From: Candidatus Moranbacteria bacterium GW2011_GWC2_40_12
GTDB lineage: Bacteria; Patescibacteriota; Minisyncoccia; Moranbacterales; UBA11712
Reading direction: 5' to 3'
Assembly (NCBI GenBank): GCA_000995965.1
Contig: LBYD01000002.1
Coordinates: 199,889 to 263,888 of the forward strand
Length of the DNA stretch: 64,000 nt
Part shown: in pieces, positions 33,932 through 57,966 of the stretch
Numbering within the stretch: the stretch's first letter is position 1
Layout of the letters: each line of letters starts with the position of its first letter
Notes under the pieces: generated by a model
Told to the model about the DNA's origin: nothing
What the model saw: the letters and a program-made list of their open reading frames with translations, nothing else
Database searches by the model: none
Program-made: the position numbers and the translations under genes

Positions 33932-34058
33932 CCACAGCGCAGGCAATGCTTGTTTTTAAATTTCTCTGCGCGAAACTTTTCGCTCCGCGCTTTTTTATGG
34001 CTTGATTATATAATGAGCAGGAGTTATTATAATAAATGCTTCTGGAATGGCAGATTCA

Positions 34059-34182
34059 CCCCGCACCATTTTGGGTGAGTGGCGAAATTGGCATACGCAC
34101 TAGCCTTAGGAGCTAGCGGGGCGACCCATGGAGGTTCGAGTCCTCTCTCACCCAAAAAATTAGATCAAAAAATGGTGCGGGG
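34059..34182. repeat. Perfect 14-bp inverted repeats bracketing tRNA-Leu(TAG)
   Basis: ccccgcaccatttt (34059-34072) / aaaatggtgcgggg (34169-34182). Confidence 0.85.
34073..34154 (+). tRNA. tRNA-Leu(TAG)
   Basis: Acceptor GGGTGAG/CTCACCC; ctagc-ctTAGga-gctag; long variable arm. Confidence 0.95.
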
Positions 34183-34229
34183 CACACCAGCCCCCGCACT
34201 AAATTGCTCCGCAATTAGTGCGGGGTAAA

Positions 34230-34279
34230 CTTAGGAGCTAGCGCCGCAAGGCATGAGGGTTCAACTCCCTCCCTGCCCA
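34230..34279 (+). pseudogene. 3' half of a second tRNA-Leu(TAG)
   Basis: cttaggagctagcgccgcaaggcatgagggttcaactccctccctgccca; begins at the anticodon loop; acceptor strand differs from the intact copy. Confidence 0.85.
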
Positions 34280-35858: not shown

Positions 35859-35909
35859 GCCGGGCTAGCTCAGTCCCGCCAGAGGCGGATAAAGTCCGAG
35901 CAGAGGACT
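35859..35909 (+). pseudogene. 5' half of a tRNA-Phe with a palindrome in the D-loop
   Basis: gccgggctagctcagt[cccgccagaggcgga..]gagcagaggact; similarity ends at U33. Confidence 0.8.
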
Positions 35910-35946
35910 TGAGGTTAGCGTCGGAATTAACAATCGAATAATTTTT

Positions 35947-36314
35947 GCCGGGCTAGCTCAGTGGTAGAGCAGAAGACTGATTTTCGGTCCATTCCGCAGC
36001 GATGCGGAAAAGAAAAATCGGGTGAATTCGAGGAAACCTAATCTCCGACGTTATGTTGGAGCAGGGCAATCTCGAGCCAATCCTTCGCCGGGAGGCTACG
36101 GATTGCAAGCAAGCTAATTTTAGAAGGCTTGCCTGCCGTAGCTTTAGCGGAGGCAGGTGTAGAGACTAGCAGGTGAGTTCCAACAATAATCCTGCGCCAG
36201 CGCCCGACCGCTCCCTTCGCGAAGGGAGGGGATGAAATAGTCCGATCCTTGGGGAAACTCAAGCAAACGACGAGGAAAATCTTTGTGTGCCCAGTTCGAT
36301 TCTGGGGCCCGGCA
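35947..36314 (+). tRNA. tRNA-Phe(GAA), exons 35947-35978 and 36275-36314
   Basis: Joined exons give gaaga-ctGAAaa-tcttt; acceptor GCCGGGC/GCCCGGC. Confidence 0.9.
35979..36274 (+). ncRNA. Group I intron (296 nt, no ORF) after U33 of tRNA-Phe
   Basis: P1 gacu/gguc with U-G wobble; P aattcgaggaa; Q aatctcgagc; R gtagagacta; S gaaatagtcc; P3 tcgggtg/cgcccga; terminal G. Confidence 0.9.
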
Positions 36315-36388
36315 CAAACAATTTATAAACTACGCCAAAGCGGGATTGCCCGCCGAAGCCTGCCTGCCAGCAGGCAGGCGTAGCGCAG

Positions 36389-53869: not shown

Positions 53870-54478
53870 GTGGCTTTTCAAATATCCCACGTTGTCTACG
53901 CGAAAAAATATCTTGAACAACATCCCGGAATGAATGCCGATTTATTTTTGCTGGGAACATTGCTTCCGGATGTCCGGCGGGTGACAGATGAAGTCAAAAG
54001 AAAGGACACGCATGTGCTGCATGAGGAACTCAATCTTGAGTTTCACGGAGCCACGGCATTTGAGGCCGGATGGAAATTCCATCTCTGGTGCGATATGCGG
54101 CGGGAAGATATTCTAAACAAGCACGGATTTTATTCGCTTAAATATACGACTGCGCTTGATTCAGTGAATAAATTGCTTGAGGACGAATTGGTTTATGAAA
54201 AATACCAAAATTGGGAGAAGCTGCGCTGGCTTCTCAACAATCCGCCGGAAATAAAAACCGGTCTCGATGTCGCGCAGGAAACCATCGGGCGCTGGTATGC
54301 TATTCTTGCCAAATACTTTGAAAAAAAACCGGATGAAAAAACAATGCGCGCGTTTTTGTGGAAGCAGAGAAAATTGCGCGGGCAAATAGGCGAAATCATT
54401 GACGCTTTGAAAAAGTTGAGGGAGAATAAAAAGGCAGTGGAAATACTGTCCAAGGTTTCTGAAGAGATATTGGAGTAA
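53870..54478 (+). CDS. Hypothetical protein (zinc-dependent phospholipase C/P1-like fold possible)
   Basis: SH near N-terminus, LGTLLPDV, TH, GWKFHLWCD. Confidence 0.7.
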   Translation: MAFQISHVVYAKKYLEQHPGMNADLFLLGTLLPDVRRVTDEVKRKDTHVLHEELNLEFHGATAFEAGWKFHLWCDMRREDILNKHGFYSLKYTTALDSVNKLLEDELVYEKYQNWEKLRWLLNNPPEIKTGLDVAQETIGRWYAILAKYFEKKPDEKTMRAFLWKQRKLRGQIGEIIDALKKLRENKKAVEILSKVSEEILE

Positions 54479-54492
54479 CATTTTATTTGGGA

Positions 54493-54861
54493 ATGATGAA
54501 AATTTATTTTGGACATTCAAAAGGATTTGATTATAAGAAAGAATTATATGAGCCGATTCGGGAAAGTGAGCTCAACATCCGGCACGAAATTATTTTCCCC
54601 CACGAAAAAAGCGAGATGCCGACGAATTCAAAAGAATTTTTGAAAACATGCGATTTAATGTTTGCCGAACTGTCATATCCCGCGACTGGACTAGGCATTG
54701 AACTTGGATGGGCAGACGCGCTCGGTGTTTCGATTGTCGGAATTTATAAATCCGGTTCGCACGTTTCCAATTCGGTAAAACTTCTGACCAAGAATTTCAT
54801 TGAATATTCCAATTCAGAGGATATGGTGAAAAAAATAGAAAGATTTATCAACGGGCTGTAG
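54493..54861 (+). CDS. Nucleoside 2-deoxyribosyltransferase-like protein
   Basis: KIYFGHS, CDLMFAE, TGLGIELGWA. Confidence 0.75.
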   Translation: MMKIYFGHSKGFDYKKELYEPIRESELNIRHEIIFPHEKSEMPTNSKEFLKTCDLMFAELSYPATGLGIELGWADALGVSIVGIYKSGSHVSNSVKLLTKNFIEYSNSEDMVKKIERFINGL

Positions 54862-54881
54862 TGTATCGGCAACACGCGCGA
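54852..54881 (+). pseudogene. 5' half of a tRNA-Pro-like gene
   Basis: cgggctgtagtgtatcggcaacacgcgcga; stops at the anticodon loop. Confidence 0.7.
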
Positions 54882-54898
54882 CCCGCCCTGTTAAATAT

Positions 54899-55086
54899 CG
54901 GGACATAGTATACCGGTAGTACACACGACGCGCCCCGCACCAAAAATATCGGGCTGTGGTATAGTGGCATTACGCACGATTCGGGTTCGTGTAATCCGAG
55001 TTCGATTCTCGGCAGCCCGAAAGCGGTATTTTGGTGCTAGGGTGAAGGTTCGTGTAGACTGGGTTCGATTCCCAGTGTCCCGACCA
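54899..55086 (+). pseudogene. Outer tRNA-Pro split in its anticodon loop (halves 54899-54928 and 55047-55086)
   Basis: Acceptor CGGGACA/TGTCCCG plus ACCA; D, anticodon (cacga/tcgtg) and T (ctggg/cccag) stems all intact; loop replaced by a 118-nt insert. Confidence 0.9.
54950..55020 (+). tRNA. tRNA-Pro(CGG), nested inner copy
   Basis: Acceptor CGGGCTG/CAGCCCG; cacga-ttCGGgt-tcgtg; T-arm ccgag/ctcgg. Confidence 0.93.
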
Positions 55087-55108
55087 ATCCAAATATTAAA
55101 AGAACATT

Positions 55109-55522
55109 ATGAAAATTGGAGTCATTAGCAGTATGCAAAATTCAGAGAAGATGATAGAAGTATGCAGCACTTTGAAAAAAATGGGGCACATTGCTTTTGC
55201 TTCAAAGTTCGCGCCTTCGATGGTTGGAAAATCAGACGAAGAGAAAGAAAAAATGAAACTGAACCAAAAGTATAATATGGACGCCATTCGAGAATTTTGG
55301 AAAGCAATGCAGGGAGCAGACGCCGTGTTAGTTTTGAATCTTGATAAAAATGGGATGAAGAACTACATCGGCGGAAATACTTTTTTGGAAATGGGATTCG
55401 CTCATGTATTAAACCAAAAAATATTTTTATATAATCCCATTCCCGAAAATCCATTTTACCAGACTGAAATTATTGCAATGAATCCGATTGTCATAAGCAG
55501 GGACTTATCTTTGATTAAATAA
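55109..55522 (+). CDS. Hypothetical protein, nucleoside deoxyribosyltransferase-like fold
   Basis: DAVLVLN, YIGGNTFLEMGFA. Confidence 0.75.
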   Translation: MKIGVISSMQNSEKMIEVCSTLKKMGHIAFASKFAPSMVGKSDEEKEKMKLNQKYNMDAIREFWKAMQGADAVLVLNLDKNGMKNYIGGNTFLEMGFAHVLNQKIFLYNPIPENPFYQTEIIAMNPIVISRDLSLIK

Positions 55523-55523
55523 T

Positions 55524-55727
55524 ATGGAATGCCAAAAAGAAAAAAATCTTGAATCTTGCCCTTGCACCTATCCGGGATGCGCGAAAAAAGGATTATGCTG
55601 CGAGTGCGTGAAACATCATCGGGAAAAAGGCGCGCTGCCTGCCTGCTATTTTTCACCCGAAGCCGAGAAAACATACGACCGGTCAATTGAAAATTTTGTG
55701 AGAGACTGGGAAAAATATTCAAAATAA
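55524..55727 (+). CDS. Small Cys-rich protein (DUF6485-like)
   Basis: CPCTYPGC..KGLCCEC..H...LPACYF. Confidence 0.78.
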   Translation: MECQKEKNLESCPCTYPGCAKKGLCCECVKHHREKGALPACYFSPEAEKTYDRSIENFVRDWEKYSK

Positions 55728-55766
55728 TTATTGGAAATATTTGTATTAATATATACAAAGTGTATA

Positions 55767-56108
55767 ATGAAGAAAGACAAGCATAAAAATATGACGGATA
55801 ATAAACAAAAAAGAGATTCAGAAGAACATGGAATAGACTGGAAAGAAAAGATTGAAGGGTATTTGGGGGAATTTGCCAAAAATTTAGCCGGTGGATTTGT
55901 GGAAAGGATTAAGGTTCAGCTTCACAACATATATGTTTCGGCGCAGAAGCATGTTCTTGGGATGTTTTTTATTCTAGTCGGTTTTGTTTTCTCCTTGATC
56001 GCGATTGTAATTTTCATCAACGATCTCATTAAAATCAGCAACGGAATCGGATACGCGGCGGTCGGTTTTTTTGCTTTCGCAGTCGGATTAATTATAATTA
56101 AAAAGTAA
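55767..56108 (+). CDS. Two-TM membrane protein (YqjE/holin-like; start uncertain)
   Basis: Two C-terminal TM helices; paired with the ElaB-like gene. Confidence 0.65.
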   Translation: MKKDKHKNMTDNKQKRDSEEHGIDWKEKIEGYLGEFAKNLAGGFVERIKVQLHNIYVSAQKHVLGMFFILVGFVFSLIAIVIFINDLIKISNGIGYAAVGFFAFAVGLIIIKK

Positions 56109-56115
56109 AAATAAC

Positions 56116-56340
56116 ATGAACAAAAAGGAAGCCAAGAAAAAAGTGGAAACAATGAAAAATAACGTGAAAGTTTTCGCGCAGAAGGAGCTTGCCAAAGCCA
56201 AAGCTGAAATGGCGAAAGCGGGAAAGAAAGTGGAAGAATACGTGAAAAAGAATCCGGAAAAAGCGGCCATCATCTCGGCCGGCATCGGCGCGGCACTTGG
56301 AGCGGCGATTGCAGCATTGATTGTCAGGAAGAAAAAATAA
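56116..56340 (+). CDS. ElaB/YqjD/DUF883-like tail-anchored protein
   Basis: YVKKNP followed by C-terminal TM and basic tail. Confidence 0.75.
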   Translation: MNKKEAKKKVETMKNNVKVFAQKELAKAKAEMAKAGKKVEEYVKKNPEKAAIISAGIGAALGAAIAALIVRKKK

Positions 56341-56363
56341 ATCAAAAAAAATTGAATATGGCG

Positions 56364-56391
56364 AACTCCGGCTAAAAAAAGCCGGAGTTTT
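56364..56391 (+). terminator. Intrinsic terminator
   Basis: aactccggct / agccggagtt followed by T-tract. Confidence 0.65.
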
Positions 56392-56443
56392 ACTTTTTCA
56401 ATGATATTCGTTAGTATTTTATTGTTACATTAGATGAAGCAAT

Positions 56444-56743
56444 ATGAAATTTGTCATCGAAAATCCATCAACGAGTGTCGCAACTTTTTTCCGCCGGGCA
56501 GGATACGTTTTCCAAAAGCGCGAAGGGGAGGAGATGGCGTTCGTGCGGCGCCTCACCGACCAGCCTTTTCCGCGTTTTCATCTTTTTGTGAAAATTGTGG
56601 ATTATAAATTTTATGTGAATTTTCATATTGACCACAAGGCGGCGAGTTATGAAGGGACGAGCATGCACAGCGGAGAATACGGCGAAGATAGCAAGTTGCT
56701 GCAGGATGAAGCGGAAAGATTGAAAAACTTTTCTAGTGATTAG
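56444..56743 (+). CDS. Conserved hypothetical protein
   Basis: 99 aa; FPRFH, HIDHK, HSGEY motifs. Confidence 0.75.
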   Translation: MKFVIENPSTSVATFFRRAGYVFQKREGEEMAFVRRLTDQPFPRFHLFVKIVDYKFYVNFHIDHKAASYEGTSMHSGEYGEDSKLLQDEAERLKNFSSD

Positions 56744-56827: not shown

Positions 56828-56838
56828 AACAGAAAAAT

Positions 56839-56857
56839 GGAGAGGTGCCAGAGTGGT
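56839..56857 (+). pseudogene. 5' fragment of a tRNA-Ser
   Basis: ggagaggtgccagagtggt is a typical tRNA-Ser 5' end through the D-loop GG; 11 nt after tRNA-Ala. Confidence 0.65.
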
Positions 56858-56891
56858 AGATATAATGCTTCTCGTATGGTATGATTGTTGC

Positions 56892-57887
56892 ATGAGAGTT
56901 AGATTATCAAAAAAGAGCTTAGAAATCTTGTTTAATACAGTAGAAGCCAAATATAAAAGGTGGGTGACTATTGCTAATAAGAATAAAGTTTCCGTGAGAA
57001 CATTGAGCGATTGGAGAAAAGGAGAAATATCGATGCCCCTTTTAGTTTTTCGGAAAATACTAGCGGATTGTGATTTAAAAGAAGAAAAAGTTTCCTTTAC
57101 AATTTTATCTGATTTTTGGCACACTAAGGATGCCGGCAGAAAAGGAGCCGCGGCGGCAATGAAATTATACGGAAATTTTGGAACTCCCGAGGGGAGGAAA
57201 TTAGGTGGACAGAGATCCATTGCCACTCACAAAAAGAGGCAAACAGCCTTTAAAACTTTGAAGCCCATCGCGAAGCCGAAACATTCGAAGAAATTAGCAG
57301 AATTGCTCGGAATTTTTGTTGGTGATGGACATTTATCTGATTACCAGGCTAGTGTTTGCACCAATTCAAAGACTGACAAAGAACATGCAATGTTGACCTC
57401 AAAATTGATTAAAAGTTTATTTCGAGTCCCTGTTTCTTTAAGGGAACTAAAAAATGAAAACACGATTATCGTTGTCGCATCTTCAGTGTCTGTCGTCAAA
57501 TTTCTCAATAAACAGGGCATGCCGCAAGGAAATAAATTAAAAAACAATCTGACTGTTCCAGGATGGATAATAAAAAAAAGAACTTATCAAAAAGCTTTTC
57601 TGCGAGGATTGTTTGATACGGATGGCTGTATATATTTAGATAAACATAAAATTAATAAGAAACGATACAATCACTTGGGATGGGCGGTTACAAGTTACGC
57701 AGAAAAACTGAGAAAAGATGTAATGGAAATTCTTGCAAATCTTGGATATTCTCCAACCAACAGAGATACTCAAAAATCAGTTTATTTAAGAAAGCAAAAA
57801 GAAATCGCAAAATATTTTCGAGAAATTGGCACGAATAATTCAAAACATTTGACCCGATACAGGAAATTTATAAAATTAACTCAATAA
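56892..57887 (+). CDS. Free-standing two-motif LAGLIDADG homing endonuclease with N-terminal HTH
   Basis: VSVRTLSDWRKG HTH; LAELLGIFVGDG and FLRGLFDTDG; AT-rich; ATG 56892. Confidence 0.9.
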   Translation: MRVRLSKKSLEILFNTVEAKYKRWVTIANKNKVSVRTLSDWRKGEISMPLLVFRKILADCDLKEEKVSFTILSDFWHTKDAGRKGAAAAMKLYGNFGTPEGRKLGGQRSIATHKKRQTAFKTLKPIAKPKHSKKLAELLGIFVGDGHLSDYQASVCTNSKTDKEHAMLTSKLIKSLFRVPVSLRELKNENTIIVVASSVSVVKFLNKQGMPQGNKLKNNLTVPGWIIKKRTYQKAFLRGLFDTDGCIYLDKHKINKKRYNHLGWAVTSYAEKLRKDVMEILANLGYSPTNRDTQKSVYLRKQKEIAKYFREIGTNNSKHLTRYRKFIKLTQ

Positions 57888-57966
57888 TAAATTCGACACG
57901 GAGTGTTCTGAAGGGCAAGGTACTGTGTCGTCCCGCACCAAAAATAAATATTCAAAAGATTTCAAT

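Follow-up and report, generated by a model that had tools for sequence, protein, structure and literature searches.

In this study, a 118-nt hairpin-ended insert with a complete tRNA-Pro(CGG) was found inside the anticodon loop of a second tRNA-Pro(CGG) gene of genome G000; the window, that is, the whole stretch of DNA analyzed, is 64,000 nt long. On balance, we believe that this insert is probably a non-autonomous, self-compensating tRNA-replacement cassette, which belongs to a family of GIY-YIG hairpin elements and would be mobilized by their nuclease. The cassette likely kills the outer gene and itself supplies a working tRNA. The insert is likely mobile DNA because its ends match those of tiny elements that carry a nuclease gene, and we are highly confident in the joint statement that the outer gene is dead, the inner gene works and the insert is mobile.

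Structure of the nested locus and fate of the outer gene

Upstream of the nested pair lies a remnant of a third tRNA-Pro gene, and the layers at the locus follow the order 5'A, arm, 5'B, arm, C, arm, 3'B (Table 1), where A, B and C are alleles of tRNA-Pro(CGG). The allele-A 5' half overlaps the stop codon of the ORF at 54487-54861; its matching 3' half is absent, and the 3' motif of its acceptor stem was not seen downstream within the window beyond the inner gene. The cassette arms are CCCCGCACCA..TGGTGCGGGG, and the right arm has two bases in place of one compared with the relatives G003 and G017. An earlier sequence-only reading had described the nested pair and its pairing flanks; it had noticed neither the third layer nor that these flanks are the arm of a repeated mobile element, which recurs at further tRNA genes, within protein genes and on both sides of GIY-YIG genes.

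Table 1. Features of the nested tRNA-Pro(CGG) locus, in window positions.
Feature	Position	Strand	Basis
tRNA-Pro(CGG) allele A, 5' half (positions 1-31), outermost layer	54852..54881	+	sequence
Older cassette, left end: CCCG and arm CCCTGTTAAATA	54882..54897	+	arm shared with intact GIY-YIG elements in the family genomes G016 and G017
tRNA-Pro(CGG) allele B (outer gene), 5' half	54899..54928	+	0 differences from the intact G001 gene
118-nt cassette, left end: CGCG, arm CCCCGCACCA (54933-54942), A/T spacer	54929..54949	+	identical 21 nt in G002, G003 and G017
tRNA-Pro(CGG) allele C, intact inner gene, without encoded CCA	54950..55020	+	ARAGORN, Rfam
Cassette right end: spacer, right arm (55032-55042), terminal TGAA	55021..55046	+	alignment to G003 and G017
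Allele B, 3' half from position 36, CCA encoded	55047..55086	+	0 differences from G001 over 37 positions compared

The inner gene was called by ARAGORN and scored 58.8 bits in Rfam. The outer halves pair fully, with the acceptor, D, anticodon and T stems at 7/7, 4/4 (one G-T), 5/5 and 5/5, respectively, and the inner and outer genes agree at 53 of 71 columns. These results bear out the sequence-only reading, which had proposed an intact tRNA nested in another tRNA-Pro, a fully paired outer cloverleaf with an encoded CCA, and two distinct alleles. The inner gene is the sole intact CGG gene called in the 1.14-Mb genome, in which CCG makes up 43% of the 9189 proline codons of long open frames. 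The tRNA is the only gene of the insert, which contains no ORF, and a gene for a CCA-adding-type enzyme is present within the window. A promoter and terminator scan stayed at the chance level. Folding of the precursor, which had also been suggested, gave -75.5 kcal/mol for the 188-nt unit (z -3.57; 0 of 200 shuffles equally good), and the predicted fold has a single asymmetric internal loop at the junction.

The insert starts with CGCG at 54929 and replaces exactly TTCG, loop positions 32-35 of the intact gene in G001 and G051. In all eight joins that preserve both strands of the anticodon stem and a 7-nt loop, position 33 is G, as expected from the earlier remark that no junction restores U33. 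Most likely, the outer gene is dead rather than spliced, because in relatives the cassette lies in another allele or between mismatched halves, or one half is missing. Since there is no join with U33, no intron match and no splicing endonuclease, and since halves are mismatched or missing in relatives, we infer that the outer gene is left as a recent relic, with the work done by the inner gene.

We considered it very unlikely that the insert is a new type of tRNA intron, or that the outer halves are functional as a processing scaffold or decoy with both tRNAs made. In favor of such readings, the outer gene has perfect stems and an encoded CCA, G000 encodes RtcB, so that ligation of RNA halves would be possible, and one nest lies on a contig of an RNA run (X19), which is no proof of transcription. 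However, four loop bases are gone and every in-register join has G33, no Rfam intron match and no tRNA splicing endonuclease (PF01974) were found, the halves are mismatched or missing in G017, G002 and G007, and the insertion sites differ among loci (D-, anticodon and T-loops).

Known intron types were also tried and rejected. The archaeal-type (BHB) tRNA intron is defined by a bulge-helix-bulge junction and a splicing endonuclease; here the junction is one asymmetric internal loop, and PF01974 was not found in G000 (97% complete), in which RtcB is present. The group I tRNA intron has, according to the available text of a preprint, a U before the 5' site and a G at the intron end, and its excision restores the loop (bioRxiv 10.1101/2020.01.27.920355). 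At this locus, the join that would give CGG has G before the site and A at the end, all eight in-register joins have G33, and there was no match to the Intron_gpI core at E up to 10, while the genuine group I intron of the window (35969-36264) was detected. ARAGORN called 166 of 600 trial joins, with many scattered anticodons and 2 Pro(CGG); this calling is permissive and was not used, and a low-threshold ARAGORN run gave noise. Joints in sequencing runs that skip the insert had 5 other letters and, where the flanks were shown, came from other organisms; contigs cannot show splicing. The RNA-run shares of 0.06 and 0.04 gave no sign of expression.

The nest is probably not an assembly artefact. 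In run X1, which is possibly the source run, one 2998-nt contig spans the stretch with 0 differences. Runs X10 (also a possible source) and X14 contain both junctions on overlapping contigs, and the overlap between the two contigs of X14 is just 19 nt. Run X19, an RNA run of another study, contains a 380-nt contig with the same cassette between allele-A halves, by which transcription is not implied. Spanning reads had been named earlier as the confirmation of the nest; the spanning X1 contig and the junctions in X10 and X14 supply this in part, as assembled contigs and not raw reads, with X1 possibly the source. A chimera of strain alleles would be favored by the metagenomic derivation of the genome, by the three alleles that segregate at the locus, and by evidence that consists of contigs, with only 19 nt shared in X14. 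It is nevertheless extremely unlikely, given the single X1 unitig (of a possible source) across the whole stretch, the same cassette between both halves in G003, G017 and the unrelated run X19, and a layout repeated in dozens of genomes.

The cassette in relatives and the nested layout in other genomes

Among the family and order genomes examined, the intact gene at this locus is allele A in G008, G011, G013, G014 and G018, allele B in G001 and G051, and allele C in G005, G006, G015 and G016, and the three alleles mutually agree at 52-55 of 71-74 columns only. The uninterrupted gene of the outer type, for which the sequence-only reading had pointed to relatives, was found in G001 and G051, which represent the empty site of which G000 is the filled one. 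The outer halves showed 0 differences over 67 positions from the same-genus G001 gene, and this supports the recent insertion that had been put forward. A retained function of the outer gene, which had been named as the other possibility, was not borne out by the relatives. In G017, the cassette lies between an allele-A 5' half, which is broken by another hairpin, and an allele-B 3' half that cannot pair with it. In G002, the cassette is one-sided, without right arm or 3' half; in G007, the 5' half is missing, and only the right arm and 3'A are present, behind a B-like gene. In G003, the same left end and cargo lie inside allele A. G003 and G017 belong to other genera of the family and have the cassette with both arms. 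A degenerate pattern of the left junction detected no further Pro nest in 151 order genomes, and outside the family its matches were near the control rate. The genes flanking the tRNA-Pro(CGG) locus (window 53870-56743; L002-L017 and L031-L038) vary by genome, like a small-gene swap point.

GTDB contigs were scanned with the pattern arm, T-loop, arm, and 119 loci were returned (about 130 are estimated in all). An intact tRNA was called by ARAGORN between the arms at 84 of them, with 28 anticodon types, mostly inside a broken gene of the same isotype; 2 of the 84 carry the present Pro cassette and add no support. The other 35 loci have no tRNA, and some of them are chance matches in coding DNA. 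The nest-bearing records are mostly labelled Patescibacteria, several of them Moranbacteria, and unverified labels outside Patescibacteria include Elusimicrobia, Ignavibacteria and TA06. At 51 of the 84 loci, the flanks were closer to their own inner tRNA than to every inner tRNA of another isotype, and at 65 their own inner tRNA was within the top 5% of flank similarity; at the remaining 19, about a fifth, a cognate flank was not evident. With an isotype-blind search, outer hairpins were detected at 32 loci, and 10 of them have the anticodon of the inner tRNA (shuffle mean 0.6, maximum 4 in 10,000). The remaining 22 hairpins read CGA, CAA or TGA in 20 cases, which is the T-loop pattern. Both halves could be mapped at 41 of the 84 loci, with the insertion in the anticodon loop, T-loop or D-arm. 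In all 41 junctions 2-7 nt were replaced (TTCG 10 times, CA 9 times), and no target duplication was seen with the element ends set 4 nt outside the arms.

The same layout could arise in two steps, when an empty hairpin element kills a tRNA gene and an intact allele later recombines into its loop; the anticodon match would then come from selection alone, and the tRNA cassette would never move as a unit. Empty arm-type hairpins do occur in broken tRNA copies beside intact genes (window tRNA-Leu at about 34179-34220; G002, G006 and G027), and recombination alone could yield the mosaic and one-sided forms. We still regard this course as unlikely: two different host alleles share an identical left end, spacer and cargo at the same position, the layout is repeated over 28 anticodon types and the tRNA is centered between the arms, and it is not obvious why a rescue copy should always land in the loop.

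The arm family and its GIY-YIG genes

Of the 151 order genomes, 24 contain the motif TTYA-CCCCGCACCA, in at most 20 copies each; the control gave 1 match. Among 79 distinct copies (70 loci fetched), 21 enclose a tRNA, 47 another short cargo, 11 are partnerless and 0 enclose a long stretch. Short cargos between the arms occur as in-frame insertions in proteins: of the 34 short-cargo copies tested, 18 lie in an open frame, and many are plain insertions relative to the G000 orthologue (e.g., L306, L326, L327, L330, L336, L347, L358 and L362). As a separate observation, L326/L362 and L336/L347 are pairs of arm-bounded in-frame inserts, unlike in length and sequence, at or adjoining the same codons of orthologues from different genomes. 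In G000, arms also bracket tRNA-Leu(TAG) and occur alone on C3. The tRNA-Leu(TAG) in question is followed by an empty arm-type hairpin and then by the 3' part of another Leu allele (window 34055-34270), a second, decayed nest.

The cassette has the features of MITEs and other non-autonomous elements, since it is short, ends in terminal inverted repeats, encodes no enzyme and has dispersed copies. Filled and empty sites were found in relatives, both at the Pro locus and in protein orthologues without the insert. A DDE-type MITE was rejected, because bases are replaced and no target site is duplicated at the 41 mappable junctions. A phage origin was also rejected: among 101 distinct right-arm matches on viral contigs, there were 0 paired-arm copies around a tRNA. 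Relatives of the arm-type GIY-YIG are encoded at only 4 viral loci.

Small GIY-YIG genes lay near tRNA genes in 14 of 30 cases, and in G000 6 of 7 GIY-YIG matches adjoin a tRNA gene. Inverted repeats enclose 10 of 26 small GIY-YIG genes, and several of these repeats are near-copies of the arm. A metagenome scan, in which exact arms and a YIG-like codon motif were required, gave 30 matches from 25 distinct elements, and in 16 an ORF of at least 70 aa is confined by the arms. The arm-bracketed genes encode 80-90 aa; 13 of 13 tested proteins of exact-arm elements match PF01541, the GIY-YIG residues Y5, Y16, G18, R26, H30 and E62 are invariant in 18 aligned ones, and the nearest solved structure is a UPF0213 protein (1zg2). 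Over 20 loci scanned, the exact-arm GIY-YIG sites included the 23S rRNA gene 5 times, the 16S rRNA gene 3 times (one an intron-type match without ORF) and the RNase P RNA gene once. At L390 (G002), L391 (G007) and L444, GIY-YIG elements interrupt 16S rRNA or RNase P RNA genes, and their arms would lengthen a helix of the host RNA (L444 was assigned by Rfam, L390 and L391 by eye). At L419, L421 and L439, armed GIY-YIG ORFs continue in frame across the right arm into a pilin-like N-terminus, and the arm encodes G-A-G-F, which we take to resemble the prepilin cleavage motif.

Because the scan pattern demanded a YIG-like motif, the share of GIY-YIG among long elements cannot be derived from it, and a better test was therefore taken from the third-layer arm of this locus, without any protein motif. 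Intact GIY-YIG elements in G016 and G017, whose ends read TTCA and TAAA as in the cassette family, have as their left arm the 12 nt that follow 5'A here, and the G002 arm at the junction behind 5'A matches the G017 GIY-YIG element L449. This arm was matched in 14 of 401 class genomes (control 0). At the 16 loci fetched, all 8 elements of at least 250 nt encode GIY-YIG and nothing else, the 8 shorter ones have none, and no tRNA was found in any of the 16. We found no GIY-YIG remnant in 55 short elements and no arm-bracketed GIY-YIG gene in G000. Exact arms 200-420 nt apart were present in 1 of 401 phylum genomes, around a tRNA cluster rather than a nuclease gene.

The exact-arm GIY-YIG proteins do not form one clade (6 changes in a tree of 86 columns with weak resolution), which would allow the gene to be a passenger acquired repeatedly. 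The cassette would then be mobile through another enzyme, such as a HUH/RAYT transposase, a LAGLIDADG nuclease, or an IS110-type or serine recombinase. Besides the tree, this is favored by G000 itself, which has six Y1_Tnp genes and a LAGLIDADG ORF at tRNA-Ser but no armed GIY-YIG. On the other side, arms were absent from all 22 Y1_Tnp loci of four arm-rich genomes, by which a Y1/RAYT or IS200/IS605 derivative was rejected, the six genes of G000 have other palindromes, and the 8 long third-layer-arm elements encode GIY-YIG alone. We consider a different mover quite unlikely. The six Y1_Tnp genes on C1 and C6 of G000 (L051-L056) encode about 220 aa, and each has its own short palindrome on both sides. 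The LAGLIDADG ORF, of 344 aa, is part of an array at window positions 56830-57960, in which a tRNA-Ser-like 5' fragment lies before the ORF and an arm-like motif and the intact tRNA-Ser(CGA) lie after it.

Proposed mechanism and comparison with known systems

For the GIY-YIG cassette, we propose that the 80-90-aa GIY-YIG protein, acting in trans, would nick the arm hairpin at its foot and the DNA of folded tRNA genes in their loops, in both cases as single-stranded DNA. This nicking is modelled by analogy on SsnA, which cuts ssDNA beside its hairpin, and on SegB, which recognizes a tRNA T-loop motif. The similarity between tRNAs and the survival of complemented cells would place a tRNA cassette in a gene of the same anticodon, and its cargo would rescue the broken gene, as in tRNA-dependent lysogeny. 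Once formed, the nest could spread and be reshuffled by recombination through its outer halves, which would give the mosaics. The inner tRNA would be released from the transcript by ordinary 5' and 3' processing, with CCA added enzymatically. Because the cargo has the same loop and hence is again a target, re-invasion could produce A containing B containing C.

Studies have shown that Ssn nucleases are single-domain GIY-YIG proteins of about 90 aa, which occur with NTS/SRM hairpin repeats in an IS-like layout; SsnA cuts ssDNA beside its hairpin, and a mobile-element origin was suggested (Chenal et al. 2025, PMC11893778). The available text of that paper shows no transposition and contains 0 occurrences of tRNA, CPR or Patescibacteria. 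As far as that text describes Ssn, the arm-type GIY-YIG is alike in size, single domain, intact motif residues and its tie to hairpin repeats abundant in some genomes, and unlike in that Ssn genes have a complete hairpin on each side, whereas here the gene or cargo lies between two half-arms. Of 16 exact-arm genes, 1 has the SRM pattern, which the nested Pro locus lacks, and in the weakly resolved tree a long branch apart from the exact-arm proteins holds two SRM-type proteins. In tRNA-dependent lysogeny of actinobacteriophages, a whole prophage is integrated by a tyrosine integrase at a core of about 10 bp (Guerrero-Bustamante and Hatfull 2024, PMC10865867). The likeness is that a same-isotype tRNA is carried on the element and the host gene is not rebuilt; the difference is that the present unit has 118 nt, no gene but the tRNA, no integrase and no prophage, replaces 4 nt and is stacked in layers. 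SegB of phage T4 is a GIY-YIG enzyme which recognizes a tRNA T-loop motif, cuts with 2-nt overhangs and promotes the spread of neighboring tRNA genes (PMC2330249); its abstract presents a free-standing homing endonuclease acting between phages and mentions no inverted-repeat arms, insertion in tRNA genes or short derivatives. The rRNA genes of CPR bacteria have GIY-YIG-encoding non-intron insertions, seemingly outside homing spread (PMC11270868). As in the available part of that report, exact-arm GIY-YIG elements sit in 23S and 16S rRNA genes, and the terms tRNA and inverted repeat occur 0 times in its text.

Bacterial MITEs, REPINs and Rickettsia palindromic elements are short non-autonomous hairpins with patchy copy number and in-frame insertion in proteins. 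The arm family is likewise short, patchy in copy number and in frame in proteins; unlike them, it has no target duplication and no Y1 transposase with the arms, and it can carry as cargo an entire tRNA that matches the target. By the tests above, the cassette is not a group I or BHB intron, a DDE-type MITE, a REP/RAYT unit or a member of Ssn. By analogy, it may work like a miniature tRNA-dependent lysogeny on an Ssn-like hairpin element. In a search of the open literature (subscription papers and supplements outside its scope), no account of one tRNA gene nested within a cognate one was found; the nearest title reportedly concerns a tRNA-Sec gene nested in selB.

If this reading is right, a 118-base element would be seen to invade a core translation gene without cost by bringing the cure, a logic that to our knowledge is otherwise found in whole prophages only. 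It would point to an 85-residue GIY-YIG protein, for which the DNA ends are defined, as the candidate mover, and would bear on the spread of hairpin repeats tied to small GIY-YIG genes, which the Ssn paper, in its available text, left open. It would also account for broken tRNA copies and for the very different tRNA alleles (52-55 of 71-74 columns identical) among close relatives. For annotation, such nests should be taken neither as introns nor as misassemblies. More tentatively, and as a possibility we rate below the cassette itself, the family may be a new class of transposable elements in bacteria, in which a lone single-domain GIY-YIG nuclease is the mover, the hairpin arms clamp any cargo in a way tolerable for structured host RNAs and proteins, and the tRNA miniatures find, overwrite and replace a gene of the same anticodon. 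If so, it would be a minimal self-compensating gene drive that turns over tRNA alleles in Patescibacteria and leaves stacked nests.

Other irregular tRNA genes were observed in G000. On C1-C3, hairpin-broken partial copies adjoin many tRNA genes (e.g., Thr, Tyr, Ala, Lys, Leu, Arg, Met, Asp and Gln). At G000:C4:66837-67026, there are two degenerate tRNA-like genes that ARAGORN could not assign. In the window at 35859-36315, a tRNA-Phe(GAA) carries a 296-nt group I intron, and upstream of this gene a GC hairpin interrupts a broken copy of the gene's 5' end.
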